Shown here piece by piece: positions 5,892 to 50,644 of a DNA stretch of 50,884 nt. The DNA is taken from positions 1 through 50,884 of the IMG/VR virus record IMGVR_UViG_3300045970_000272; one strand, written 5' to 3'. Within the stretch, counting starts at the first letter, position 1. Each line of letters starts with the position of its first letter. Source of the stretch: a virus. Its lineage: Duplodnaviria; Caudoviricetes. Under the pieces are notes generated by a model. That model saw only the letters and a list, made by a program, of their open reading frames with translations, made no database searches and was not told where the DNA came from. Made by a program: the position numbers and the translations under genes.

Positions 5892-6638
5892 ATGCCGTTC
5901 GATCGCAAGAAACTAATAGCCTTGAGAAACAACGTTCAAGCCATGATTGGTAAAATTGAACGTGAGGACAAGCTCGGCAACTTAGACAACATCATTAGTG
6001 AGAACACTAACGGTGCGATCACGGCGGCGTTTGCGCAGATGGAGTCACGCATGGAGCAGGCGATGTCCGCTCGTGGTGGTGGCGATTTGGAGGAGGTTAT
6101 TGAGAAGCTTGGTCGGCGCATCACGTCGGCGTACTCCAGTGCCTCCCCTAAGGACAGGACGGACGAGGTTATCACCGCCATCTCAAACATACGGTTCCCA
6201 GAGGTCAACTTCCCCAACACGGTATCTATCGACAACTTCCCTCCCCAAAAGATACCCAACCCCGTCACGAACATCAAAGCGACCATCGTGGGCGACACCA
6301 CAGGGTTGCTCGGTGGCGACACCGTCCACAAGTTCGGTGAGCAGACGGTGGCGGCAGGCAACACGGTCGCGTTGGCAACGTACACCGTCCCCGTCGACTT
6401 ATCTTTATTGGTGAAGGGCGTTTATGCGGAGGGGATAGACGACGGCTTATTCGCCCTCTACATTGACAGTACGAAGGTGTGGCAGGCGCGCAACTCATGG
6501 ACGCAGCGCAACGTGGAGTCCGACATTCAATTCAATTCAGTGGCGACAGGCTTGGTAGTCGAGCTGAGAGTGACCAATCTTAAAAATCTATCCAAGCAGT
6601 ATTCAGGAGGTTTCTATGGCATCAGAGTTAACCCGTAA
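5892..6638 (+). CDS. Virion protein: helical N-terminus plus C-terminal YTVP-type beta-sandwich
   Basis: C-terminus aligns by eye with that of 6847..7521; N-terminus resembles 9733..9936. Confidence 0.6.
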   Translation: MPFDRKKLIALRNNVQAMIGKIEREDKLGNLDNIISENTNGAITAAFAQMESRMEQAMSARGGGDLEEVIEKLGRRITSAYSSASPKDRTDEVITAISNIRFPEVNFPNTVSIDNFPPQKIPNPVTNIKATIVGDTTGLLGGDTVHKFGEQTVAAGNTVALATYTVPVDLSLLVKGVYAEGIDDGLFALYIDSTKVWQARNSWTQRNVESDIQFNSVATGLVVELRVTNLKNLSKQYSGGFYGIRVNP

Positions 6639-6846: not shown

Positions 6847-7521
6847 ATGGCAGATTACAATTCAAGTTTACCCGTAAGAACAGAAGCTGACGGTGACTTA
6901 GGTGCGCGTATCGTTGGTGCAACACCCGCGAACGTCTGGGTCATTGATGCAAGTGGTATCGGTCAGGTAAATCTCAATGACGGTACTAACGCATTGGCGA
7001 TTAATGCGGCTGGTGGTATCGGCGTTACTTTGGCAACAGGATCAGAAGTCAAGATCACTGATGGCACAGACACGCTCGCTATTACTTCGGCTGGATCAAT
7101 CACATCGCTTATTTCTGATGGTACCGACACTTTGGCTGTTAATACTGACGGCTCACTTAATGTGAACGTGGTCACCAGCACCGCTGGAGATCAAGTTCAT
7201 TCCTACGCAACCAGTGCTTCGTTAGCAGCAGGCGCAACAGCAACCGTGGTCAGTTACACCGTTACAACCGCAAAGACACTCTTACTCGCTTTGGCTCATG
7301 CTTCGGCATCAGGTAAAGCTAAGGTGGAAGTGTTAAGTGGAGTATCAGGTTCAGAAACCGTCAAGGCTGTATTCTTTATCAGCACCTCTAATGGATTCGG
7401 TACCGCTGAGTTCCCCAACAGGATCGAAGTGGCTGCAGGAGACAAAGTCCTCGTAAAGATGACCAACCGCGACAACCAGAGCCAAGATGTGTACGCATAC
7501 ATCAATGGTGTTGAAGTTTAA
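6847..7521 (+). CDS. Fibre/decoration protein with short beta repeats
   Basis: Three (I/L)xDGT(D/N)xLA(I/V) repeats; C-terminal beta-sandwich; strong SD GGAGGTGA. Confidence 0.65.
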   Translation: MADYNSSLPVRTEADGDLGARIVGATPANVWVIDASGIGQVNLNDGTNALAINAAGGIGVTLATGSEVKITDGTDTLAITSAGSITSLISDGTDTLAVNTDGSLNVNVVTSTAGDQVHSYATSASLAAGATATVVSYTVTTAKTLLLALAHASASGKAKVEVLSGVSGSETVKAVFFISTSNGFGTAEFPNRIEVAAGDKVLVKMTNRDNQSQDVYAYINGVEV

Positions 7522-11462: not shown

Positions 11463-12323
11463 ATGGCAAATTTTACAACCACAACTTCTGCGGTGTTCAT
11501 CCCTGAGGTATGGTCTGTTGAAACTTTGCGAGCAGCCGAACGATCACTCGTTATGGCTCCTCTCGTAAAGCGGTATGACTCGTTGGTCAAACAACGCGGC
11601 GATACCATTCACATTCCACACATCTCGAACTTGACCGCCAACGATAAAACTCAGAACAACGAAGTCACCCTTCAAACGGTGAGTGAGACTGAGACAACCA
11701 TTTCCATCAACAAGTGGAAAGAGGTTTCATTTGAGATTGAAGACATCGTCAAGGTGCAATCTCAGTACGATTTACGAAGTGAATACACCGCCAAGGCTGG
11801 TTATGCTATCGCTCAACGAGTAGATAGTGACCTTTTGGCTTTGTACGCTTCCCTCGCTTCAACTGACGTTGGAACCTATGGTTCTGACATCACTGATGCA
11901 ACAATCGTAGCTGGGCTGCAGGCTCTTGATGAGGTCGACGCTCCTTTGGAAGATCGTTACTTCGTAATCGCTCCTTCTCAAAAAGCTGCGATCATGAAGC
12001 TCGACAAGTTCGTCAAAGCTGACTTCTTAGGTCAGTATGACCAACCAACTCCAGTCAAGCGTGGTCCCAACTCAAGATATTTATGGGGTGATATTTATGG
12101 AATCCCAACCTACTACACCAACCAGGTTCCAACCACGGCGGGTACTCCCCTCCAAACCCATAACATCTTATTCCACAAAGAAGCATTCGCTCTTGCGATG
12201 CAATTGAGTCCACGTACTCAAGCTTCTTATTGGCAGAAAGATTTGTCTTGGCTAATCACGGCAGACACTTTATATGGCGTAGCTGTTATCCGCGATACCT
12301 TTGGTGTCGAGGTAAGAAGCTAA
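11463..12323 (+). CDS. Major capsid protein (HK97 fold, P22/N4-like)
   Basis: FIPEVWS, GDTIHIP, YAIAQRVDSDL, DRYFVIAP, GDIYGIPTY, DTLYGVAVIR motifs. Confidence 0.9.
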   Translation: MANFTTTTSAVFIPEVWSVETLRAAERSLVMAPLVKRYDSLVKQRGDTIHIPHISNLTANDKTQNNEVTLQTVSETETTISINKWKEVSFEIEDIVKVQSQYDLRSEYTAKAGYAIAQRVDSDLLALYASLASTDVGTYGSDITDATIVAGLQALDEVDAPLEDRYFVIAPSQKAAIMKLDKFVKADFLGQYDQPTPVKRGPNSRYLWGDIYGIPTYYTNQVPTTAGTPLQTHNILFHKEAFALAMQLSPRTQASYWQKDLSWLITADTLYGVAVIRDTFGVEVRS

Positions 12324-17902: not shown

Positions 17903-18622
17903 ATGGCGAAAGACTTGGCTTACTTACGAGCGCAAACACGAACCTATCTCGATGAGGCGGCGTCCGCTGACTGGTCAGACGGAGAGGTTGACCGTGAGAT
18001 AAATGCTGGTTACCAGGAAGTCGTCACCGCCGTGATAGGCGCGTACGAGGACTTTTACGTGACCTCCGCACTGTTCAACACCGTCGCCAATAAACAGGAA
18101 TATGGTCCAACTGACGGTTTACCCGCCAAGGTGTACAAGTTCCGTCGAGTGGAACTCAACTACTCGCCCTCTCAATCCACCCGCATGATTAAGGTGCGCG
18201 CCACTACCATCGACCACGTTATGAGCGACCTCGGCAACTCCGTGTTCTCAATCAACATGAGAAATGAACCTGTCTACTACGTTTTGGGCGGCGGTTCACC
18301 CGACTACAAGATCGGCTTCCTACCCATTCCAATCGAGTCTGGAACTAACGTCGGCAAGATTTGGTATGTGCAGGAAGTGGACGAGCTGGTGGACTCCACC
18401 GACACGGTAAACATTCCCTACCCAGACCGATTTGCACCCCTCATCAGCAGGTACGCTGCATCGGTGCTTTTGAACAAAGGTCAGCAAGAGGACAAGTCTG
18501 CGCTCACGTATATGCAGTTATTTCAAACAGGGTTACTCAAGATGGAACAACAATTACGGGATAGAACCGCTGACGGCGCACGCACAGTCGTGGACACCGT
18601 CGGCGCGGATTTAATGTTCTAA
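17903..18622 (+). CDS. Head-to-tail adaptor protein
   Basis: LRAQTRTYLDE...WSDGEVDREINAG; IPYPDRF...YAA; typical position before the nozzle gene. Confidence 0.7.
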   Translation: MAKDLAYLRAQTRTYLDEAASADWSDGEVDREINAGYQEVVTAVIGAYEDFYVTSALFNTVANKQEYGPTDGLPAKVYKFRRVELNYSPSQSTRMIKVRATTIDHVMSDLGNSVFSINMRNEPVYYVLGGGSPDYKIGFLPIPIESGTNVGKIWYVQEVDELVDSTDTVNIPYPDRFAPLISRYAASVLLNKGQQEDKSALTYMQLFQTGLLKMEQQLRDRTADGARTVVDTVGADLMF

Positions 18623-23196: not shown

Positions 23197-24645
23197 ATGG
23201 CAGACAACCCTATTCTTGATGCACAAGGCACGATGGCTAACAACAACCCGAGCATCATTTCTGATACCTACACGGGTGCAAAAGCTCCCGAGAACACCAC
23301 CATTCCTTTGCAGGCTGCACCGCCAGCTCCAGCTCCAACCATGCCCTCGGTGTCGCCGAGCATGACTCAAGCCAATGACGTTATAAGCAACCTTTCAAGC
23401 CAACTTTACAGCGGTGGTCCCGTAGCGGGCATGGAGAACCAGCGCGCAGCCATGCTGGGCGAACTGGCTGGTTACGACTCCCAACTCGGTCAGGTGTACG
23501 GCGGACAATCACCGTTCCCAACCGTCCCTGGTTATGTGGACAACCCGAACGACTTAATGGGCGGATTGTCGTCCATCTCTGGCATGACCGCAGGAAACAT
23601 CGGCAGAACCACAGGAGCTATCGACACCACCGAGCGCGCGTATCAACTCGCCACCTCCACGGTAATGAGTCAATTCATGGACTTTATGAAGCAACAGAGT
23701 GCCGACAGGTTCAACGAACAGCAACTCCAAATTGAAAAGGAGAAGCTTCAACTTGAACGCGAGAAGGCTGGTGCTGGTTCCCAAAACAATATGCTCAAGA
23801 TACTGGCTGCCTGGTCGGGCGTATCGCTTGACGATGCGGGCGGATTATCTCTGGACAAGGTTAGTAAAGAGCTTCAAACAATGACTCCCGAACAGAAGCA
23901 GGCGCGCAAACTGTCCGCTATGGCATACGCCAAAGACCCCGCGGAAGCAAAACAACTCAACGACTTATTTGACACCTACTCCAAGGGCGGAACGGCAGGC
24001 ATGGTATCTCCAGAAGATCGTGTGGCGGTGTCCAGCTTGAGGAAAGAGTTCCAAACTTCTACCTCAGACTTTGATGCGGTGCGCACGTCCTACGTGAACG
24101 CCAAGGCTGCAACCGACTCTCCAATGGGTGACGAAACGCTTGCGCAAGCCTACTTGGTATCGTTGAACCCACGGTCTTTCACCACGGGTACGGCGTCAAA
24201 GCTTGACCTGTTCAAGAACGCTGAGTCGTTACCTGGCAAGATGGGTGACGCTTACAGGAAGATTGTCCTGGGACGTAGCTTAAGTGCCGACCAACGCCAA
24301 GAGATGATTCAAAACATCGAGAACAAGTTCAAAGAGTATGAAAAGCAATACAAAACGATCGTCGGCAATTACAAGCAACTCTCCGAGTCGTACGGACTTG
24401 ATCCTCAAACCATCATCGACAATCCTTATGGCAATGGCTACGGGCTTGCAATTTTGAACAGAAACCTGGACAGTGAATATGCGGGGATAACAACTCCCCA
24501 GGGTTATTTAGCACCCACGCAAGCACCCGAGATTGACGTCAACCAGTATATCAAAGGGAATGAAATCACCTACCCCTCTGGCAACCCAATCAAAGATTTA
24601 TTAACACCAAAGAAATACCCCGTTGAACCAAATTACGGTGGATAG
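23197..24645 (+). CDS. Putative DNA ejection protein
   Basis: 482 aa; LRKEF...D.....AYLVSLNP...LSADQR pattern; located in the ejectosome block. Confidence 0.55.
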   Translation: MADNPILDAQGTMANNNPSIISDTYTGAKAPENTTIPLQAAPPAPAPTMPSVSPSMTQANDVISNLSSQLYSGGPVAGMENQRAAMLGELAGYDSQLGQVYGGQSPFPTVPGYVDNPNDLMGGLSSISGMTAGNIGRTTGAIDTTERAYQLATSTVMSQFMDFMKQQSADRFNEQQLQIEKEKLQLEREKAGAGSQNNMLKILAAWSGVSLDDAGGLSLDKVSKELQTMTPEQKQARKLSAMAYAKDPAEAKQLNDLFDTYSKGGTAGMVSPEDRVAVSSLRKEFQTSTSDFDAVRTSYVNAKAATDSPMGDETLAQAYLVSLNPRSFTTGTASKLDLFKNAESLPGKMGDAYRKIVLGRSLSADQRQEMIQNIENKFKEYEKQYKTIVGNYKQLSESYGLDPQTIIDNPYGNGYGLAILNRNLDSEYAGITTPQGYLAPTQAPEIDVNQYIKGNEITYPSGNPIKDLLTPKKYPVEPNYGG

Positions 24646-24655
24646 CAGGAGGAAT

Positions 24656-26302
24656 ATGGCAGAACTCGATGTCGACAAACTAAAGATTGATCACCCCTAC
24701 CTGGACGATGCGCAGATTGATGCATTGGCGGCAAAGGCTAATTTGACCAGAAGCGATCGCACCTTTATGGGGCGATTAGCTGGCGGTGCAAAGGCGGTCA
24801 CCGATGTTCTGTTCCCCACAGCTAAAGATTACGTTGGTCGTGCGTGGTCTGACCCACAATCTTTCAAAAGCACTCAAATGGAAAATGTGGCTCACCAACA
24901 GGTAAAGAACGGTGATTGGGCTTCGGCAGTTAAGGGTTTACCAGCCTATTTGGGTCAATCATTCTCTGAACAGATTGCCCCTGCGGGCGAGGTCGCTCCC
25001 TGGCTTATGCCACCTGCAAAAGCGTTCGGTATGGCGTCCCCCGTGGCGCGTATCGCCAACATGGGATTAACAGGCATGAGTGGTGGAGCCGTCCGAGGAT
25101 TTACCGCCCCTGCTGCAACCGCCGAGAAACGGATTGAAACTGGAGTGATGTCGTCTTTAGCAGGTCTTGGCACAGGTTTGGCATTTGGTGCGGGATCAGA
25201 GAAGATCTCCTCATTAAGAAACGCCGCGAACTTGCGCAAACTCCAAGAGCAACAGGCTGCCAACGTGGGAAACATTGACACCATCGCCTCTTTACCCCCA
25301 GACGTTGTCCCGGACCAAATTAACCTCGATAACATCCTGACTCCCAGAAAGACCTACGCCCCCACTCAGGGCGAGCAGATGATTTTGGAGCAGTTCAAGG
25401 TGGGGTCACGCGCAGCGCAACGCTCCCTCCGACTTCCTCAAACCATTAAGAATATCAATGAATACGGCTTATTAAGCTCTGACTTCAATAAAATGGGTCA
25501 ACAGGCTGAACAGGCTGGTAGGTTGGTCGACCATGTGGTCAACTACTCGTTACCTCCAGTCCCTGTCAACGTCGATGAGGCAATGTCTGCTGCAAAACAG
25601 GCGTCAACTTACGCCGTTGGCGTAACCGACCGAGATGTAAACGCTGTCATGCAAAAGATCGCTGACACCACCAAGTACGGCGACACCATCGGTTTCCAAA
25701 ACGCTGACGTAGCGATGGATACCTACCGCAAGATTAGAAACTTTGGAATGATCCAGGCAAGCAAGGCTGTGCGCGGCGGAGAGGCTGGTCAATTCAGCCA
25801 AATGTCCGACCCTGCTGCAGAGAGTTTGGCAGACATTTATTTTGCTTTCTCCGACAAATTGCTCGCCAATATCAACCGAGATGTTGGTGGTGCGCCCGTA
25901 GCGGCTGCTAAAACACCTCAAGTAATGGCGGTTGCAGAGAAGATCAGTCCGCTCTTGGCGCAGAAGCTTAATGCAGCAACAACCGTGGGTGAAATCAACA
26001 GGATTGGTGCAGACTTTTGGAGATTATTGGGTGGAATCAACATGACCAACGACGCAGCAACGTCCCCCATTTACAACGCCATGCTTAAGTCGGGTGGGAT
26101 GATCCCTGCTATAGCGCGCGCTACCATTCAAAGCCGTCCCGTTGCGATTGAGGGGGGTAAGGCTCTCATCAACGCCACCAACTCACTCACCAACCCCGCG
26201 CTGATGCCTGTTTACGACAAAGTTCAGTCATTAGTGAAGCCTGCGATGAGGGTTCTGACACCATTCATTACGGGTTCCACGGTTAAGCAGGTTAACCAAT
26301 AA
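24656..26302 (+). CDS. Putative DNA ejection protein
   Basis: ATG at 24656 follows AGGAGG; G/A-rich hydrophobic stretch. Confidence 0.55.
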   Translation: MAELDVDKLKIDHPYLDDAQIDALAAKANLTRSDRTFMGRLAGGAKAVTDVLFPTAKDYVGRAWSDPQSFKSTQMENVAHQQVKNGDWASAVKGLPAYLGQSFSEQIAPAGEVAPWLMPPAKAFGMASPVARIANMGLTGMSGGAVRGFTAPAATAEKRIETGVMSSLAGLGTGLAFGAGSEKISSLRNAANLRKLQEQQAANVGNIDTIASLPPDVVPDQINLDNILTPRKTYAPTQGEQMILEQFKVGSRAAQRSLRLPQTIKNINEYGLLSSDFNKMGQQAEQAGRLVDHVVNYSLPPVPVNVDEAMSAAKQASTYAVGVTDRDVNAVMQKIADTTKYGDTIGFQNADVAMDTYRKIRNFGMIQASKAVRGGEAGQFSQMSDPAAESLADIYFAFSDKLLANINRDVGGAPVAAAKTPQVMAVAEKISPLLAQKLNAATTVGEINRIGADFWRLLGGINMTNDAATSPIYNAMLKSGGMIPAIARATIQSRPVAIEGGKALINATNSLTNPALMPVYDKVQSLVKPAMRVLTPFITGSTVKQVNQ

Positions 26303-26377: not shown

Positions 26378-29300
26378 ATGCCCATAACAAACCAAAGAAT
26401 ACCAAAACCTCTCAATGATTTCACCAACGGACTCAAAACCGCAGGCAGAAACGTGGCGATGGCTATCCCATCACTTCCCGAACTACGACAGGGAGTCAAA
26501 GACTTCCCTAAATCGTTCGGTGAGTTCACCAAAGCAATTCCTGAGGGCATGGGTTTGGCGATGCGCGCTGCCGATCCAGTATCCGCGTTAGGTGGAGAGC
26601 TTTTGGGTCAGGAATCACCCGACCCCACCAGAACTTTGCAACGTAACGGTCCCGACGAGGGGTTAGCCTCACGAACTGCCAAAGCAATCTATGAGGGTAA
26701 GAGTTTGTACGGCGGGTTACGCCAAAAGGGTGTTCACCCTGCGTTAGCGTTTGGTGCAGAAATGCTCACTCCTTCAATGTGGAACCTGACCGCTATTGGT
26801 CAAGCTGCGAAGAACTTCTCAGGTGGTGTTAAGATTAACAAGGCGTCCCCCACGGCTGTTTTGAAGGCTGTCGGTGACTTCGCCAAAGAGTCTGGCACGT
26901 CCCTTTCCACCCCCCAAATGGCGGGTATCGCTGCAGGGTTCCAACCTGAGTTTGACGAGAACGGCAACTTCAAAGGTATGGGTTACAACGAGAAGCGCGC
27001 AGGTGCGGCACTCCTTATACTCAACCTCGGCTTACCCGTTGCAGGCATGATTGCAGGTAAAGCTGCTAAGGGCTTCAAAGATGGCAACCAATTCAACCGT
27101 ATCGCTGACGGTGCGGAGGGCGCGACCAAGTTTGAAATCCCCGACGTCGACGCAAAGATTAACCTAAACGACGAGAGCATGAAGGGCTTAATCCGCTCGG
27201 GCGGAGAAGTCACCTACAAGCTGGGCGACGTACTCGATCACAAGGGATTATTTGAGGGCTACCCTGAACTCAAGGACGTGGACGTGACGATTGCGCGCAA
27301 TAACGACGCTTTCACCAACAAGACCGCGTTGGCAGAGTCCAACACCGACACCAACGGCATCACAATCCGACCCGTGGGTAACGTCGACCAATTCCGACGC
27401 AACCTGCTCCATGAAATAGAACACTTCGTTCAAAACATTGAGGGGTTCCAAACTGGCACACTCCCCGAGAAGATGGACATTGACCCCCAATTGGCTATCC
27501 AGCGCAACGTGCTGATGCAGGCGCGTGTCGCCACCGAACTCAAGGAGAAACTTGGGTCTTGGGAGGCTGCGTCCACTCAAATGGCAAACGACATCAACCC
27601 AGAAATAGCCAAATCCGCCGTCAGTGCTGCCAAACAGTACGATGGGTTGGAGGACATCAAACTTGCTCAACAGAACATTAAGAGCGCAATAGAACTTGAT
27701 ACCTGGGAGAAGTACAACAATATGCCTGGTGAGTCCGAGGCGGGTGCGGTTGAAACGCGCGCCAGTATGACCCCAGAACAGCTCGCCAGCACCGACCCGT
27801 ACGCAGCTCCAAAACTTGCTAATTCGGGGGAAATGGGTAATATACCCAAGCCTATGTCAAACATCCGCCCAGAGGACGCTGATTGGATTAAGCGTTCCGT
27901 AGACGACGTTGAATTAATGCCAAATCAGTTCCGTAACAACCTCGAGGACGCTGGGGTTGACCCCGCTATCACCGACAGACTTGTTAATATCAAAAATGAT
28001 GTGGCGCGATACAAGAACGACCCAGAAACGTTGCAAACCATCAAACAAGACTTGGAAAGCGTAATAGGATACCGTGGCAGAGGCGCAGTTCCCCCATCAA
28101 CTCTTGATGTACGAGCAGAAGCCAAAGCTGGTCTTGAACGTTACAACGGCACGAACGCAGGCGATGGGTACGACTATCCTGGCGTTGCTGGCAAAGTCCC
28201 CCAACCTGCCGATGACTCCGCCTGGGTCAAAGACCAGCTCGTAAATGACGATATGTCCTCCGATGAGGAGATGTACAAGCTGTTCGTCGACAACGGCATC
28301 AATCCCGCGCAAGCCAAAGAGGTAATTAAGCTCCGACAGTCGGTAATGACCGACCCCTACGCTGGAATGAACGGTAGTCCCCAAATGAACGCCGTTGAGA
28401 AGATCATGGGCGTAACCCCCAGCGAGAGCGCCGTTCCTGGCGTGTCGCAAGCCGACCTTGTCGCAGCCATGAAGAAGACCGCTGGCAAAGTCCCTGCACC
28501 GACTGGAGATGTGGGATCTAATTCCCTTCCGTACAAGCGAGCGTTCTCTTCACAACAAGAATACATTGATAACGTCAATTATCTAAGAAAATTGAAAGTG
28601 CCTGAATCAGAAATTGCCAGGATTGTCCCAACTGTCCAAGACCCCAGCACCTACAACGAGACGGTCACGGGCGGTAAATATGTTCCTCAAAAATTAAACG
28701 CCATAAGCTCTAGAGAGGGCATACTGAATGGAACTATCAAAGACCTTGAGAGTCAAATCCAGGCTGAAATATCTAGTGGCGCGCAACCATACCAGTACCG
28801 ACAGATCCAGGACGAATTGACCAAGGCTAATAACGATCTTTATGACCTGCAGCAATATAAATCTGGGGTGTCTGGCAAGGTTCCTTCTCCAGAATTACAA
28901 ACCAAATTAGACCAAAACAAAGCAATACAACAGGAAATTCAGGATCACCTGGACGATCCAATGGTCAACCCAAACGACCCAGATACATTGGAATACAAAC
29001 GAGAATTAAATAAACTCGCCCTAGAGGAAACTAAATTGTGGGAAGCCATTCATGGGGACGACCTCAAAGTGGCTGGCAAGGTTCCCCAACCTGACGACTA
29101 CACGGAGTGGACATTCACAGGTAAAGATGGAACTAAGACTACTGTGAATGGACTACGGCTAAAAGAAATGGGGATGGATATTGCCGACTATATTACCCAG
29201 GAGGGTGGTCAACCGTTTGATGTAAAAGTAAATGAAAACCCCGTTTATGGTGGCGACACGAATTACGATACCACCAAACCAGACTCTCTATTTGACTCGA

Positions 29301-31189
29301 TGACTGGTAGGGGTGCTTGGTCAAAGACATCTGGTAAGATCCCCCAACCCAACCCCGACCAACTCTCAATCTTCAACAAGAACGTCCCCTCGTACCACAC
29401 CGCCAAGGTGACAAACTCCACCGATGGTTCGGTCACACAGATGAACCTGCGCGACGTTAACCAGAATGCCGGTCCGTTCAGAACGGCAAGTAACCTGGGT
29501 TCGGACGTGGCTGGGAAGGTGCCAGCCCCATTCAACTACCAGCATGAACTGACCAATAAATCCATGATGAAGTCCCGAGGGATTATGTCGCTATTTGAGC
29601 CTTACATGGACAAGCAGGTTGGCAGGTTTGAAACGGCAACAGAGCAAGATGACTTTGTAGGCAAGATGTTCAACGAGATTGAAACCAAGATTGCCTCTGG
29701 TAAAGAACTAACCTTGGCGGATATAAAGTCAAACCTTAGAAATAACTTCCCCATGTTTGAGGGCAACCCCGAAGGGTTGAACCGTGCTGCGCGCGATATC
29801 CACAGCAATATGAAGTCATTTGGTGTGGCAGGCAAGGTTCCCTCTCCAAAAGAGATGGCTGACATGGAGTCATTCCTGCGCCAATCGGGTTCGACAGAGT
29901 CCGACATTAAGAGCGTGATGGAGCAGTACGCCAAAGCGGACGCCATCGCCCCCAACGCGCGCGGTAACGCCTTCACGGAAGCCAACCGAACGGACATCAA
30001 CACGGCGGGAAAGATACCCCAACCAACCAGCGTAGAACAGGACATTAAAGAGATAGCGCGCGCCTCTGAAGATTCGTTCGTGAAATACAAAATGCAAGAT
30101 TTGGTTAGGAATATGGGGGGAATGAGTAAAGACCAGATAGCTGCTGAACTTACCAAGCTATCAACATCAGACACCCTTGACAGCTTTGATAGGGAGAACC
30201 TGTCAAGCTTGTCCAATAAGCTCAACGGCGGCACCTACTCCAGCGCAAACGGTCGGTACGATATTGCTGGCAAGATTCCCAAACCTGCCGACGACGCCAT
30301 CGACATGATGCCCTGGTTGAAGAAGCAATCCAAAGAGGTACAAGACTTGGTATTTGGTGAGATTGCTGGTCAAGAAAATATGAGCGGTGACTTCTCCAAA
30401 GACTTCACCCAAGATGGACAGAACGCCTGGAACATTGAGATGCGCAAAGAGGCTCAAAAGTTTATGTTTGAACCCAAGAAAGTAGATCGAATTCATGCCC
30501 TGATCAACTCCCAATTCGGTCGAATGAACTTTGAGGATTACTACGATCCTATGGTCAAAGACCTCCAAAAGCTCGCGCAAAGCAAAACCCCCGTAGGTGA
30601 GGAGCAGGTGCAGGGAGTTCTTAAAAAGTACATCGGTGAACAGAACAACCAAGCTGGGACAATATTCTCTGAGGGAATGGAAATGATCCGTACAGGCAAG
30701 CTCCCCACCGTGAGCAAGGTGTCTGGAAAGATCCCCCAACCCATGAGCGCGGCCGACATGAAAGCGTTCGGTGGCAGGGACTACGGGTACGACCCAAATG
30801 AGACAAAGATACCTCAACAGCCCGTGCCAGTTCCCAAGCAAACTTTGGATATACCTCTCGATGAGGTTCAAGCAGAGATTGATGACGCGCCAGGTGACTA
30901 CACCAAGAACGCTGCACCAATGCTCAAAAAGGTGTGGGACGCAGGGCTTAGCCCTGACCAACTCAAAGTCGCCAGGGACGGCACAGTTACATTCCGACAG
31001 AGCTACTACTACAAGATGGGCAAGTCGCCTGAATTGTTAGCCAAACAGATTCAAAGCGCACTACCTGACGCGCAAATTGTCAGCACCAACGACGAGTTTG
31101 CACAGTGGCCCAAATCCAGCTACTTCGCGGTGAAGTTCAAAGTGCCAAAGGCAACTTCTGGAAAGATCCCGCTCATCCCAAAACGGTAG
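26378..31189 (+). CDS. Large polyvalent ejection protein (LPD23-like domain, HExxH metallopeptidase, 11 [AS]GK[VI]P-delimited modules)
   Basis: KFEIPD...KLGDVLDHKGLFEGYPELKD; LLHEIEHFVQNIEGF at about 27410; Y...PGESEA..VE.R; repeated linker motifs. Confidence 0.75.
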   Translation: MPITNQRIPKPLNDFTNGLKTAGRNVAMAIPSLPELRQGVKDFPKSFGEFTKAIPEGMGLAMRAADPVSALGGELLGQESPDPTRTLQRNGPDEGLASRTAKAIYEGKSLYGGLRQKGVHPALAFGAEMLTPSMWNLTAIGQAAKNFSGGVKINKASPTAVLKAVGDFAKESGTSLSTPQMAGIAAGFQPEFDENGNFKGMGYNEKRAGAALLILNLGLPVAGMIAGKAAKGFKDGNQFNRIADGAEGATKFEIPDVDAKINLNDESMKGLIRSGGEVTYKLGDVLDHKGLFEGYPELKDVDVTIARNNDAFTNKTALAESNTDTNGITIRPVGNVDQFRRNLLHEIEHFVQNIEGFQTGTLPEKMDIDPQLAIQRNVLMQARVATELKEKLGSWEAASTQMANDINPEIAKSAVSAAKQYDGLEDIKLAQQNIKSAIELDTWEKYNNMPGESEAGAVETRASMTPEQLASTDPYAAPKLANSGEMGNIPKPMSNIRPEDADWIKRSVDDVELMPNQFRNNLEDAGVDPAITDRLVNIKNDVARYKNDPETLQTIKQDLESVIGYRGRGAVPPSTLDVRAEAKAGLERYNGTNAGDGYDYPGVAGKVPQPADDSAWVKDQLVNDDMSSDEEMYKLFVDNGINPAQAKEVIKLRQSVMTDPYAGMNGSPQMNAVEKIMGVTPSESAVPGVSQADLVAAMKKTAGKVPAPTGDVGSNSLPYKRAFSSQQEYIDNVNYLRKLKVPESEIARIVPTVQDPSTYNETVTGGKYVPQKLNAISSREGILNGTIKDLESQIQAEISSGAQPYQYRQIQDELTKANNDLYDLQQYKSGVSGKVPSPELQTKLDQNKAIQQEIQDHLDDPMVNPNDPDTLEYKRELNKLALEETKLWEAIHGDDLKVAGKVPQPDDYTEWTFTGKDGTKTTVNGLRLKEMGMDIADYITQEGGQPFDVKVNENPVYGGDTNYDTTKPDSLFDSMTGRGAWSKTSGKIPQPNPDQLSIFNKNVPSYHTAKVTNSTDGSVTQMNLRDVNQNAGPFRTASNLGSDVAGKVPAPFNYQHELTNKSMMKSRGIMSLFEPYMDKQVGRFETATEQDDFVGKMFNEIETKIASGKELTLADIKSNLRNNFPMFEGNPEGLNRAARDIHSNMKSFGVAGKVPSPKEMADMESFLRQSGSTESDIKSVMEQYAKADAIAPNARGNAFTEANRTDINTAGKIPQPTSVEQDIKEIARASEDSFVKYKMQDLVRNMGGMSKDQIAAELTKLSTSDTLDSFDRENLSSLSNKLNGGTYSSANGRYDIAGKIPKPADDAIDMMPWLKKQSKEVQDLVFGEIAGQENMSGDFSKDFTQDGQNAWNIEMRKEAQKFMFEPKKVDRIHALINSQFGRMNFEDYYDPMVKDLQKLAQSKTPVGEEQVQGVLKKYIGEQNNQAGTIFSEGMEMIRTGKLPTVSKVSGKIPQPMSAADMKAFGGRDYGYDPNETKIPQQPVPVPKQTLDIPLDEVQAEIDDAPGDYTKNAAPMLKKVWDAGLSPDQLKVARDGTVTFRQSYYYKMGKSPELLAKQIQSALPDAQIVSTNDEFAQWPKSSYFAVKFKVPKATSGKIPLIPKR

Positions 31190-31220
31190 CCCCCACCCCC
31201 GTTGGTGGGGAAGTGGGGGG
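31177..31220 (+). promoter_or_regulatory. Candidate -1 programmed ribosomal frameshift signal
   Basis: In-frame C CCA AAA heptamer (31177..31183), spacer, then stem CCCCACC/GGTGGGG (31191..31210) and a downstream G-run able to pair with the loop. Confidence 0.7.
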
Positions 31221-31917
31221 AGAAATACCAGGAGGAGTGGCGGGAAAGATACCTAAACCCCTCATGGTGAACGAACAGGTCGCCCCCACGGATGTGGGTA
31301 AAGTCCGAGAAGATATTGGGGCTTTATTGAGTAAGAAATATAAAACCACGCTGGATGCATCGTTGGAAGACGAGCAGTTTAATCAAATAAAGAACGCCAG
31401 TCCTGGTGAGATAGAAAAGAGAATGGGATTTGTCTCCAATTTACTAGACACCGAACTGGCGAAGCGATGGAAGACAATCGACACCTACGAGTTAATAGCA
31501 AATAAAGCTGTACCAGACAAAGCCAAAGACAAGCTGATTGATGATGCCATCAAAGATTTGGAGGACGTTACTAAGTTCGCCGTGGTTAAGGTGGCTGGAG
31601 CAGACGGTAGAGAGGGTGAAGGGCTTGGCGCATTATCTGACTTCTTTAGTGAGGTGTACAAGGCGACTGGTAAAGATAAAGTCATCGCATTTGATAAGCT
31701 CATCAACATGATTCACTCCAACGATGGATCGGTACTGGCGGCCAACCTTGATATGAAGGTGGGTACGCCCGTGGCGAAGGCATTTAGCGAGATTGTTCTC
31801 GACAAACTCGATTCGTTGGCAGGAGGTATTCCAAAATCCTACTACCGCACCGAGTTTGGCAAATCTAGATACATACCAAAGTTTAGAGAATTACCAAAAC
31901 CAAAAGGAGTACGATGA
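31183..31917 (+). CDS. -1 frame C-terminal extension of the polyvalent protein (244 aa)
   Basis: Lies within ORF 31105..31917, which has no well-placed SD/start; contains a 12th AGKIPKP motif at 31240. Confidence 0.65.
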   Translation, partial: TVAPTPVGGEVGGEIPGGVAGKIPKPLMVNEQVAPTDVGKVREDIGALLSKKYKTTLDASLEDEQFNQIKNASPGEIEKRMGFVSNLLDTELAKRWKTIDTYELIANKAVPDKAKDKLIDDAIKDLEDVTKFAVVKVAGADGREGEGLGALSDFFSEVYKATGKDKVIAFDKLINMIHSNDGSVLAANLDMKVGTPVAKAFSEIVLDKLDSLAGGIPKSYYRTEFGKSRYIPKFRELPKPKGVR

Positions 31918-46378: not shown

Positions 46379-47584
46379 ATGAACAAAGATATGCGTCCGA
46401 TTAGTAGTTTGACTCTGTGGGACAAGAACCCCAGGTCAATCTCCAAAGAATCATTTGAGTCCCTCAAGAACAAAATCAAACGCTGGGGTCAGTTCAAACC
46501 GCTGTTAATGACTCCCGAGGGGATCATCATTGGTGGCAACATGAGGTTGCGCGCGTACAAGGAGCTGGGTATCAGCGAGGCGTGGGTGTCCGAGATCCAC
46601 CCCAAGGGTGAGGCTGAGATGATTGAGATTGCGTTGGCGGACAACGAACTCGCAGGTCGCTGGGACAGGGACGCTTTGGCAGAATTGGTGTACGGCTACA
46701 AAGACGAGATCAATTTGGGCGACTACCAGCTAGACTTAGGCAAGCCTGCCGACTTAAACCAACTCCTTTCACAGTACGGTCCCTCCGCCGAGGAGGACGA
46801 AGTGCCTGAGGTGTCCGATGAACCGCCCGTGTCGGTACGCGGTGAAATCTACGAACTCGGTCAGCACCGCTTAATGTGTGGCGACTCCTGTTCGTTGGAC
46901 GACGTAACCCTGTTGATGGACGGCAAGAAAGCTGACATGGTTTTCACTGACCCTCCCTACAACGTCAACTACGGCGAAACAATGAAGGACGAGCTGCGTG
47001 GCGGTAACCGCACGATCATGAACGACAACATGGGCGACGCTTTCCCTCAATTCTTAAACGATGTGTGCGTCAACTTGGTCATGTTTACCAAGGGCGCGAT
47101 TTACATTTGTATGTCCTCCTCTGAACTGACCACCCTCAAGGAAGCCTTTGTCAGCGCAGGTGGGCATTGGTCAACTTTCCTTATTTGGGTCAAGAACACA
47201 TTCACAATGGGACGCTCCGACTACCAACGCCAGTACGAGCCTATTTTGTACGGGTGGAAAGAGGGTACGGATCGTTACTGGTGCGGTGCGCGCGACCAGG
47301 GCGACATCTGGGAGGTCAACCGACCCACCAAGAATGATTTGCACCCCACCATGAAACCGTTGGAACTGTGCGAGCGCGCTATCAAGAACTCGTCCAAGAC
47401 TGAGGACATCGTGTTGGATCTATTCTTAGGCTCAGGCTCTACGCTGATCGCTGCGGAACAGACGGGGCGCGTGTGCTTTGGTATGGAACTCGATCCCAAA
47501 TACTGCGATGTGATACGTAAGCGTTATGCAAAATACATGAACAAGGAGGAAGAATGGCAGACACTAACTCCCAAACTCGCATAG
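46379..47584 (+). CDS. ParB-N domain fused to an N4-cytosine/N6-adenine DNA methyltransferase (beta class)
   Basis: WDKNPR, IIGGNMRL, LGQHRLMCGDS, FTDPPYN, HPTMKP, VLDLFLGSGSTLIA. Confidence 0.92.
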   Translation: MNKDMRPISSLTLWDKNPRSISKESFESLKNKIKRWGQFKPLLMTPEGIIIGGNMRLRAYKELGISEAWVSEIHPKGEAEMIEIALADNELAGRWDRDALAELVYGYKDEINLGDYQLDLGKPADLNQLLSQYGPSAEEDEVPEVSDEPPVSVRGEIYELGQHRLMCGDSCSLDDVTLLMDGKKADMVFTDPPYNVNYGETMKDELRGGNRTIMNDNMGDAFPQFLNDVCVNLVMFTKGAIYICMSSSELTTLKEAFVSAGGHWSTFLIWVKNTFTMGRSDYQRQYEPILYGWKEGTDRYWCGARDQGDIWEVNRPTKNDLHPTMKPLELCERAIKNSSKTEDIVLDLFLGSGSTLIAAEQTGRVCFGMELDPKYCDVIRKRYAKYMNKEEEWQTLTPKLA

Positions 47585-49003: not shown

Positions 49004-49658
49004 AGAGGAGCTGGAGGAAGTGTCGCGCCTCACGGCTGTGGCGGAGGTTGAGCGTGCAAAGAACGACCTCTTTTACTACCTGGAGAACATGGTGTGGACG
49101 ATGGACGAACACGACGAGGATCACCCCACCAAGAAGCTTCCGATGGAGAAGCGTTACTTGCAGGAACTCGCCTACCACTTCTTGAACGAGAAGCTGCTGT
49201 TGGTCGAGAAGTCCCGTCAAATGATGGTGACGTGGTTGATGGTGGCGTGTCATTTGTGGGACGCACAGTTCCACGAGGGGCGGCGCATCTTCTTCCAATC
49301 CAAGAAGGAGGCGGACGCAAATCACCTGGTTGACCGCGCCAAGTTCATCTACAACAACTACCCACCCGTGTACCGTGAGATTATCCACACCAACTACGCT
49401 GCGCGCACTCCGATGGCGTACCTTAAGCTGGAGTTTGGCAAGCTCAACTCAATCATACAAGGCACTCCCCAGGGGTCGGACGTTCTCCGCCAATACACCG
49501 CCTCACGTATCTTTATGGACGAGGCTGCGTTCCAGGAGAAGGCTGAGGAGACGTGGATTGCTGCCAAACCTACTGTGGTGGGTGGCGGGTCGGTCGTGAT
49601 GGTTTCCACTCCAAACTTTAAGAACTTCTTTTATCAAGTGAGGAGCGATTCTCTATGA
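48918..49658 (+). CDS. terL: Terminase large subunit, N-terminal ATPase half
   Basis: Walker A EKSRQMMVTW, Walker B IFMDEAAF, coupling motif VSTP, then a stop 14 codons later. Confidence 0.88.
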   Translation: MSNYQKDSLSSLASLPPQVRLKMVKRLSKEELEEVSRLTAVAEVERAKNDLFYYLENMVWTMDEHDEDHPTKKLPMEKRYLQELAYHFLNEKLLLVEKSRQMMVTWLMVACHLWDAQFHEGRRIFFQSKKEADANHLVDRAKFIYNNYPPVYREIIHTNYAARTPMAYLKLEFGKLNSIIQGTPQGSDVLRQYTASRIFMDEAAFQEKAEETWIAAKPTVVGGGSVVMVSTPNFKNFFYQVRSDSL

Positions 49659-50644
49659 TCAAGTACATCGACCTGTTTGCAGGCGTGGGAGGGTTTCATT
49701 ATGGATTTGACAAAGCTAATAACCTTTGGTCGTTGGCTGAGGGGTTTGATTGCGTTTACTCAAACGAGTGGGACAAGTACGCCGCCAGCGTTTACAGGCG
49801 TCACTACAACGAATGTGACGAGCGGGACATACGAACCGTACCATCTCAAGACCTCCCAAGCTTCGACCTCCTCTGTGGAGGATTTCCCTGTCAACCCTTC
49901 TCGGTGGCTGGACGACATGGAGGTTTTGATGACACCAGGGGAACGCTCTTCTTTGAGATTGTTAGGATACTGTTCGATCGCCAACCCAGACTCGTACTAC
50001 TTGAAAACGTCAAAGGGCTGCTCAGTCATGACGGTGGACGCACTTTCAAAAGAATCATCTCCGCGCTTGATGAGCTGGGGTACAACGTTCAATGGGATGT
50101 GCTTAACAGCAAGGATTACGGGGTACCGCAAAACAGGGAGCGCATCATCATTGTCGGCTATCTTAGAGGAACACGTAGACTCGAAGTATTTCCTATCCGA
50201 CGCAGCAGTTCAGAAGATACTTTGGCGCGCATCGCAACCAAGGTTTACGAACCGTTCCCGCAAACCCACCGACTATCAGACGCGTTTAGAATCCGAGGAG
50301 TAGATGGTGTGAGCGCAACCCTCAAGGGGCTGGGTGGCGGCATGGGTGCAAAGACTGGACTGTACGCCGTACGCCAACCGCTCAAGTTTCTCGACCGTAA
50401 CCAGCGCAACATCGAGGGCGACTACTCGTACACCGTGGACAGTTTGAACACGGGCGGCGTTCGGATTGGTACAAAGGTGCGCCGACTGACACCCGTGGAG
50501 TGCGAACGGTTGCAGGGTTACCCAGACGACTGGACCAAGTTCGGAGAAGATGGTAAGTTAATGAGTGACAGCCAACGCTACAAGATGATGGGAAACGCTG
50601 TCACTACAAATGTTGTCACAGCCGTGGCAGAAAGGTTGGTATGA
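49655..50644 (+). CDS. dcm: DNA (cytosine-5) methyltransferase
   Basis: DLFAGVGG, GGFPCQ, ENVKG, QNRERI, RRLTPVECERLQGYP, GNAV. Confidence 0.95.
   Translation: MIKYIDLFAGVGGFHYGFDKANNLWSLAEGFDCVYSNEWDKYAASVYRRHYNECDERDIRTVPSQDLPSFDLLCGGFPCQPFSVAGRHGGFDDTRGTLFFEIVRILFDRQPRLVLLENVKGLLSHDGGRTFKRIISALDELGYNVQWDVLNSKDYGVPQNRERIIIVGYLRGTRRLEVFPIRRSSSEDTLARIATKVYEPFPQTHRLSDAFRIRGVDGVSATLKGLGGGMGAKTGLYAVRQPLKFLDRNQRNIEGDYSYTVDSLNTGGVRIGTKVRRLTPVECERLQGYPDDWTKFGEDGKLMSDSQRYKMMGNAVTTNVVTAVAERLV

Follow-up and report, generated by a model that had tools for sequence, protein, structure and literature searches.

A candidate self-processing polyprotein in a tailed phage: a giant protein with a zincin-type domain and lineage-specific tags at its module junctions

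Polyproteins that are cut at a conserved junction consensus by a protease embedded in the same chain are known from the picornaviruses (3C) and the potyviruses (NIa). The prohead proteases of tailed phages likewise act at short consensus sites, with T4 gp21 cutting at L/I-x-E and phiKZ gp175 at S/A/G-x-E. Among phage proteins the closest described group are the polyvalent proteins, for which autoproteolytic processing by zincin-type domains, and thereby the release of the other domains, was predicted in the main text of Iyer et al. (2017; PMC5512222). Giant HExxH-containing virion proteins that are regarded as being ejected with the DNA also include N4 vRNAP gp50, according to passages of PMC13434306, and phi24B gp47, according to passages of bioRxiv 10.64898/2026.04.10.717836. 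The subject of this study is a protein of this general type, P0001, which is encoded by a giant open reading frame (ORF; 26378..31189, + strand; 1603 residues by translation) of the Caudoviricetes virus record IMGVR_UViG_3300045970_000272. The record is complete (50,884 bp, with direct terminal repeats) and was analysed over its whole length, hereafter the window. An initial annotation, made from the sequence alone, had regarded the protein as a possible self-processing polyprotein divided by a recurrent short motif.

P0001 consists of a conserved N-terminal chassis (residues 1-485; 26378..27832, +), which includes a hydrophobic segment and an HExxH domain, followed by a string of about 12 small and mostly unrelated modules that are joined at copies of an eight-residue tag. 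We consider the tags as recognition and cleavage sites of the protein's own zincin, and P0001 hereby as a candidate self-processing polyprotein, a reading for which we find belief and doubt about evenly balanced. The zincin of this polyprotein-like virion protein would cut each junction, acting in cis or on another copy, and would free about 13 small proteins together with the chassis. Cutting would take place within the capsid or, once the protein is delivered, in the host. Since zincins typically favour a hydrophobic P1' residue and the hydrophobic-Pro core of the tag suits the P1'-P2' positions, the predicted scissile bonds lie between K and [VI]P in P0001 and between N and [VI]P in its relatives. 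That the domain is an active zincin peptidase, that it recognises the tag, that and where it cuts, and that P0001 is packaged and ejected is what we infer from the observations described below.

Like the polyvalent proteins of PMC5512222, P0001 is a large multi-domain phage protein (1603 residues in about 13 segments) with an HExxH domain of putative zincin type, a gene in the virion block and modules that also occur as stand-alone proteins, and the autoproteolytic domain release predicted there corresponds to the processing proposed here. It differs from them in that its zincin has no Pfam match and in that recognised effector or LPD domains are absent from its modules according to Pfam. The eight-residue junction tag and its lineage variants are not described in the main text of PMC5512222, in which the terms "linker" and "interdomain" do not occur and "cleavage site" occurs in the references only. 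Junction motifs were likewise not described in the titles, abstracts or passages of the literature on polyvalent proteins with metallopeptidase or proteolysis. With the picornavirus and potyvirus polyproteins P0001 has in common a single ORF, a cis protease-like domain and a short junction consensus that differs by lineage; those polyproteins, however, belong to eukaryotic RNA viruses, are cut by cysteine or serine proteases and yield essential replication products, whereas P0001 is a candidate zincin system encoded by a late gene of a double-stranded DNA phage. The processing of T4 and phiKZ proheads is similar in that a short consensus specific to the phage marks the cuts in internal proteins that are packaged, some of which have several sites, but it depends on a separate protease gene and its sites are found also on capsid and scaffold proteins, whereas the tag of P0001 is confined to its own ORF and the neighbouring one. 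N4 vRNAP differs in being reported in PMC5512222 as packaged unprocessed; junction motifs are not mentioned for it or for phi24B gp47 in the passages cited above, and neither has similarity to P0001 beyond the generic zincin level.

P0001 is a polyvalent-type protein with an explicit lineage-specific junction code and with a half-site at the N-terminus of its chassis. The self-processing by zincins predicted in 2017 came without defined sites, and P0001 provides 12-14 near-identical candidate sites in one polypeptide; the sites of its relatives differ in a defined way, which makes specificity as well as cleavage addressable. If the reading is true, a dozen or so families of small proteins would join the candidates for delivery by phages, among them one with more than 100 unannotated stand-alone relatives, and junction tags could help to divide further giant proteins of phages into their units.

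The six-frame translation of the window was searched for the pattern [AST]GK[VIL]P, which gave 13 matches, 12 in the P0001 ORF, one in the next ORF and none elsewhere; in 5000 shuffles of the residues of P0001 the mean number of copies was 0.023 and the maximum two. All copies are on the + strand. The full copies in P0001 are AGKVPQP (28187..28207 and 29072..29092), AGKVPAP (28481..28501 and 29510..29530), SGKVPSP (28871..28891), SGKIPQP (29330..29350 and 30722..30742), AGKVPSP (29828..29848), AGKIPQP (30005..30025) and AGKIPKP (30266..30286). The degenerate copy TGKLP (30692..30706) is located 10 residues ahead of the next full copy, and the last copy, SGKIP (31157..31171), 10 residues from the stop codon, with a C-terminal tail that ends in IPKR. 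The copy in the next ORF, AGKIPKP (31240..31260), is in the -1 frame. A degenerate first junction, MGNIPKP (residues 486-492; 27833..27853, +), directly follows the last helix of the zincin, in coil with a predicted local distance difference test score (pLDDT) of about 50-56, and an N-terminal half-site, RIPKP, is found at residues 7-11 (26396..26410, +). The segments between the motifs comprise 98, 130, 67, 86, 60, 106, 59, 87, 142+10 and 145 residues. The six-frame search and the translation thus reproduced the motif positions, the 59-152-residue spacings and the degenerate copies of the initial annotation in full, and the tag proved to be longer than noted there: V, T or I is present at position -4 in 11 of the 12 copies and P at position +2 after the motif in 10, so that the consensus in P0001 is [VTI]-[AS]-G-K-[VI]-P-x-P. 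The homology that had been suspected between segments is weak for the first two (23% identity over 57 residues, E = 0.003 in a single comparison), though they align in register from the motif.

A looser pattern, [KRN][VI]P.P, had 19 six-frame matches, 13 of them in the P0001 ORF and the next ORF, the half-site RIPKP being one. Single matches to the loose core occur elsewhere, QKIPNP at 6249 (ORF 5892-6638, after the portal gene) and VNIPYP at 18410 (ORF 17903-18622, the adaptor), and are probably due to chance.

No full-length relative of the module string was obtained; a word-indexed search with residues 590-1603 returned P0001 only. Megablast of the P0001 gene against phage records gave no match, tblastn of the protein against phage records matched residues 224-497 alone, and a scan of viral contigs with the whole of P0001 returned no close relative. 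Alignment-based scans yielded 80 viral, 26 metagenome and 3 genome loci, among which L082 alone has the chassis of P0001. Three relatives with the same chassis and architecture were identified altogether, namely P0013 (1193 residues), P0006 (999 residues) and L082, which lies on a metagenome contig and is cut off at 693 residues. Their chassis are 34% (L082, E = 1e-71), 32% (P0013, E = 1e-48) and 30% (P0006, over 143 residues, E = 4e-12) identical to that of P0001, and the chassis of L082 and P0013 are 56% identical to each other; the chassis is the sole part common to all four proteins.

Each relative carries its own form of the tag. The form in P0013 is Q[AT]NVP.P (about eight copies plus variants), in L082 it is [QE]AN[VI]P (four copies in the partial sequence), in P0006 it is AKNIP[KS] (five copies and two variants), and a fragment, P0099, has QANIPAP. 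The residue before the invariant [VI]P is thus K in P0001 and N in the relatives, and the preceding positions also depend on the lineage. As with all 12 copies in P0001, the junction copies of P0013 and P0006 are all located after the zincin. The N-termini read MPITNQ-RIPKP in P0001, M-NVPK in P0013, MIKV-NIPKP in L082 and MP-IPK in P0006, and the residue before [IV]P (R, N, N and P, respectively) fits the protein's own variant in three of the four. All the junctions of a protein change their tag together, and nothing but the chassis is common to the family, which makes the chassis, most plausibly its zincin, the simplest reader of the tag.

The order of the modules differs between the relatives. 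Module A (residues 604-701 of P0001; 28187..28480, +), a small helical domain (pLDDT 84-93) with homologues in P0006, P0013, P0099 and the stand-alone protein P0075 (80 residues), is the second module after the zincin in P0001, the first in P0006 (42% identity, E = 1e-24) and the fourth in P0013. The second module of L082 corresponds to the last of P0013 (47% identity over 60 residues, E = 9e-13 in a single comparison), the alignment beginning at the first residue of the tag, and in both P0001 and P0013 the last alpha/beta module occupies the second-to-last place. P0013 and L082 have no other module in common at E<=1e-3 despite their 56% chassis identity. Judged from these alignments, the turnover of cargo is rapid and its breakpoints fall at the tag. 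Homologues without rearrangement at motif boundaries would have counted against the initial annotation, and such rearrangement is observed.

Movement of modules at the tag would also be expected if the tag were a DNA-level scar or a microhomology for module-shuffling recombination without any role as a peptide. The codons speak against this, since the copies of the tag in P0001 use four different codons for Gly, four for Pro, seven for Val/Ile/Leu and five for Ala/Ser/Thr, there is no long common DNA word, and the pairwise identity among copies is 0.45 at third codon positions compared to 0.88 at first and second positions. We therefore regard a scar as extremely improbable and, in agreement with what had been noted about synonymous variation within the motif, place the selection on the peptide and not on the DNA.

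The HEIEH motif that had been assigned to a zincin in the N-terminal part is located at residues 345-349 (27410..27424, +), and H345, E346, H349 and Q352 (HExxHxxQ) are invariant in 87 aligned sequences. A conserved stretch, W..Y...PGE.E, follows at residues 443-454 and includes PGESE at residues 450-454 (27725..27739, +), of which P450, G451 and E452 do not vary among the three aligned proteins. E452 is the candidate third metal ligand, and the PGE.E stretch would fit a zincin of the gluzincin type. The zincin core was modelled by AlphaFold2 at a pLDDT of 87-97, a long helical insert being less confident. This insert dominated a wide search with VIA-align (best Z 8.1, 70 residues), which was uninformative on the zincin core. 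The complex prediction for the zincin core and a 35-residue junction peptide had a score of 0.02 and a mark of 0.32. The only strongly hydrophobic stretch of the protein, 19 residues long, is also part of the chassis (residues 208-226; 26999..27055, +; Kyte-Doolittle mean 1.94).

P0001 had no Pfam family at E<=0.01 and two chance-level rows at E<=1, and a sequence search of the PDB with residues 1-500 gave no match. When the N-terminal part or the alignment of three proteins served as query, only distant relatives at the zincin level were obtained. An LPD23-like domain, which the initial annotation had proposed for the N-terminal part, has no direct Pfam match in P0001 and receives partial, transitive support through P0141: residues 231-475 of P0001 align with residues 983-1239 of that protein (E = 2e-15), overlapping the end of its Pfam LPD23 match (971-1016). 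Distant relatives of the chassis carry the Pfam domains ART-PolyVal and LPD23. In the zincin-level relatives P0140 and P0142-P0144 no obvious junction tag was seen by eye.

The HExxH motif is also present in alpha-ketoglutarate-dependent peptide hydroxylases, so that the tags could be sites of a covalent modification by which the HExxH domain acts on the Lys/Asn-[VI]-Pro core. Passages of PMC13434306 point out that the motif is common to zincins and other enzymes, the invariant [VI]P core preceded by K or N is compatible with a modification, and an alpha-ketoglutarate HExxH domain (8s5f, E = 7.9) was among the non-significant Foldseek rows; no similarity of P0001 to such enzymes was significant, however, and the downstream PGE.E would rather fit a gluzincin-type third ligand. 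We consider a modification very improbable.

Residues 575-1603 were modelled by AlphaFold2 with an alignment that was deep for the last module only (mean pLDDT 65). The model shows one alpha/beta domain and otherwise small bundles of helices, with many of these domains at a pLDDT of 85-98 and low-confidence coil between them; means over blocks of 10 residues reach 98 in the segments between tags, and the stretch of about 943-1067 is disordered throughout. All 12 copies of the tag overlap coil with a pLDDT below 50, and 10 of the 16 such coil segments contain a tag. Motifs inside folded domains would have counted against the initial annotation, and none is so placed. At most junctions the tag is the last part of the linker, and 2-5 residues separate it from the first helix of the module behind it, from which we conclude that it belongs to the start of the module. 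Since Gly and Pro themselves favour a prediction of coil, the linker placement alone is a weak test.

The same placement, in coil and usually just ahead of the helix that opens the next module, would suit a tag that is not cut at all. Such a tag would serve as a linker or handle in a protein built like beads on a string, being a flexible element, a docking element for the chassis, the portal or the capsid interior, or an aid to passage through the tail domain by domain. The N-terminal half-site present in all four family members and the full site that opens the next ORF fit a handle that every unit needs, and known zincin-bearing virion and transfer proteins are reported as unprocessed in the main text of PMC5512222. 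On the other side, a passive linker needs neither eight conserved positions nor a concerted change at every junction from one relative to another, and no binding partner was identified for a docking role. We consider an uncleaved tag rather unlikely, though worth weighing seriously.

For cleavage by the protein's own zincin speaks that P0001 combines a protease-like domain, substrate-like junctions and a conserved junction consensus in one polypeptide, and that the cis HExxH domain is the only peptidase-like signature found in the structural block. Pfam and PHROG scans of the other ORFs of this block, from the terminase to P0001, found no protease family, and several of the ORFs match nothing. 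These scans bear equally on cleavage by another protease, which could be an unrecognised phage maturation protease or a host protease of the envelope or cytoplasm, with the zincin cutting the cell wall or a host protein instead. The head proteases of T4 and phiKZ cut many internal proteins at short consensus sites, and different hosts could explain the different variants of the tag. The metallopeptidase of phi24B gp47, a virion protein of 2811 residues, was proposed to act on peptidoglycan in passages of bioRxiv 10.64898/2026.04.10.717836. The absence of a protease family from the scans counts against another protease, although many ORFs are unmatched, as does the confinement of the strict tag, which was found in no further phage protein, whereas the sites in T4 and phiKZ also mark capsid and scaffold. 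We regard another protease as improbable.

Several observations weigh against self-cleavage. The zincin domain matches no Pfam peptidase model, and Foldseek of the zincin model against the PDB gave no row at E<=0.001, the best being ArdC (6sna, E = 2.6, probability 0.06). N4 vRNAP, ArdC and TraC1 carry such domains and yet, according to the main text of PMC5512222, are packaged or transferred unprocessed. Neither the N-terminal half-site nor the full site that opens the next ORF is needed for a pure cleavage role, and a cut at the last site, which lies 10 residues away from the C-terminus, would yield nothing more than a heptapeptide. The tags at the N-terminus, near the C-terminus and in the next ORF suggest a handle function beside or instead of cutting. 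The known family has four members, of which one is partial, and the covariation of tag and chassis therefore rests on three independent variants. Finally, crude motif discovery in 46 sequences of at least 900 residues (P0001, P0006, P0013 and ORFs from 43 loci) and in 14 further loci detected, for most of the other giant ORFs with a zincin, no junction motif of similar strength. Outside the P0001 family, FSL recurred strongly in 17 related ORFs of 4-5.5 thousand residues, next to a few weaker words, and junction tags are therefore not universal at that sensitivity.

In a wider model, which we regard as possible but on balance doubtful, each lineage would have a private eight-residue code that is read by its own zincin. 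By means of the code on the N-terminus and on the neighbouring ORF the zincin would recruit and trim cargo provided in trans, and the gene and its neighbour would together bring about 14 small proteins, exchangeable at the code, into the host.

A possible second junction tag in a different lineage was noted in L007, L029 and 15 related viral loci, in which zincin-bearing giant ORFs of 3.6-5.5 thousand residues have 7-10 copies of x-K-F-S-L-[KR], at a spacing of 73-770 residues and compared to an expectation of about 0.7, standing before unrelated downstream sequence. The zincin-bearing ORFs 8414-13510 of L026 and 8285-13018 of L045 contain N-terminal tandem repeats, of 11 residues (five times) and 13 residues (three times).

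Homologues of the modules were sought by an exhaustive HMMER search of residues 575-1603 against 1.84 billion representatives, which returned 138 proteins at E<=1e-3. Nearly all of these cover the last module (about 1513-1592) alone, three match module A, and two are the giant chassis-bearing proteins P0013 and P0006. The alpha/beta domain of the last module (residues 1513-1592; 30914..31153, +; pLDDT 88-98) belongs to no Pfam family; its matches comprise more than 100 cluster representatives, 111 being stand-alone proteins of at most 130 residues. The family consists of proteins of about 75-120 residues (P0003-P0139) with the conserved pattern G..YFYRHG...W.WPK.SYF.V.F and without a Pfam match, and it is also found inside other giant proteins, P0037 and P0095. 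A stand-alone homologue has a generic small alpha/beta fold, with template modelling (TM) scores of about 0.55-0.6 to T2SS-M/PilO-like models, by which no function is indicated. A search of BFVD with the 1029-residue model gave only low-TM rows to models named "large polyvalent protein" and one phage protein of 86 residues. [IV]P is present in the first 15 residues of 4 of the 111 stand-alone homologues of the last module, compared to 9% of background windows. A further candidate role of the tag, N-terminal targeting of the stand-alone homologues of modules in general, was rejected on this count, and the lack of the tag in these homologues places it in the polyprotein (fused) context.

The modules matched no Pfam family and no phage record, and several of them are short helical bundles or disordered in the AlphaFold2 model. 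The suggestion that they are early effectors, such as anti-defence proteins, hence found no support.

The tag in the next ORF (P0002 frame; ORF 31105-31917, + strand, 31237..31917 from a GTG codon) must be translated, because the tag is so rare, either in a separate protein that starts with AGKIPKP or in a -1 extension of P0001. Homologues of this ORF were not found in phage records (tblastn), PHROGs or Pfam. A heptamer in frame with the slippery pattern X_XXY_YYZ, C_CCA_AAA (31177..31183, +), lies 4 nucleotides before the stop codon of P0001 and is a candidate -1 slippery site. It is followed 6 nucleotides further on, directly after the stop codon, by a hairpin of a G-run and a C-run (31190..31219, +; 11 pairs, -22.1 kcal/mol), and the 6-nucleotide spacer contains the stop codon. 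A -1 slip at 31177 would enter the frame of the next ORF, which carries the full tag, through a short Gly/Pro-rich stretch. As an alternative, translation could restart at GTG 31237, with AGGAGGA directly upstream of it, in which case the tag would open the product. Against a frameshift weigh the eight in-frame X_XXY_YYZ heptamers in the P0001 ORF and the modest z-score of the hairpin compared to shuffles (-1.8). In windows of 41 nucleotides, -22 kcal/mol is reached at four places of the genome (7534-7575, 12328-12368, 31190-31219 and 39517-39552), and two of these hairpins follow the stop codons of ORF 6847-7521 and of the major head gene (11463-12323). With similar hairpins after two other gene ends, the one at 31190-31219 may be a gene-end element, which further weighs against a frameshift. 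Taken together, a programmed -1 frameshift into the next ORF is conceivable but not the outcome that we expect.

All four hairpins are of the G-run/C-run type (GGTGGGG... with ...CCCCACC), the one at 31190 having its C-rich arm first, and they may form a family of gene-end RNA elements, e.g., terminators or processing sites. At the C-terminus, both P0001 and P0006, of which the chassis are about 30% identical, have a tag, a few residues, [IL]PKR and the stop codon, P0006 ending in LPKR; the C-terminus of P0013 is PKVQPR. In P0001 and P0006 the C-terminal peptide, or else the nucleotides that encode it, may be under constraint, and their common ending [IL]PKR-stop would fit a conserved slippery site.

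The gene of P0001, the largest among the late genes of this podovirus-like phage, is the last large one of a structural block on the + strand (about 1.8-32 kb), and a minus-strand replication module comes next. The block includes a terminase-like ORF, the portal gene (PHROG 156, E = 2e-29), the major head gene (PHROG 267, E = 2e-48; ORF 11463-12323), an SU10-type adaptor (PF24175, E = 3e-14), tail ORFs, an ORF of 1093 residues with a ConA-like lectin domain, and, after the adaptor and tail genes, three late ORFs of 482, about 550 and 1603 residues, the largest of which is the last. The same order is found upstream in L082, with ORFs of 487 and then 693 residues ahead of the giant ORF. The place after the tail genes is where podoviruses keep their internal or ejection proteins, and by its gene position P0001 would be an internal or ejection-type virion protein that is packaged and ejected. 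The designation as ejection protein in the initial annotation agrees with the gene order and has no counterpart in homology to T7 gp16 or the like; neither Pfam nor PHROG detected in P0001 a similarity to the T7-type internal core (e.g., the lytic transglycosylase of gp16).

For the ORF at 24623-26302 the listed TTG start is unlikely; AGGAGG stands at the usual distance ahead of an ATG at 24656, which makes a product of about 548 residues probable. Elsewhere in the window, two DNA methyltransferase genes were identified (46379-47584 and 49655-50644; gene matches to PHROG 498, E = 2e-130, and PHROG 116, E = 6e-96), the first of which is fused to a ParB-like N-terminal domain.

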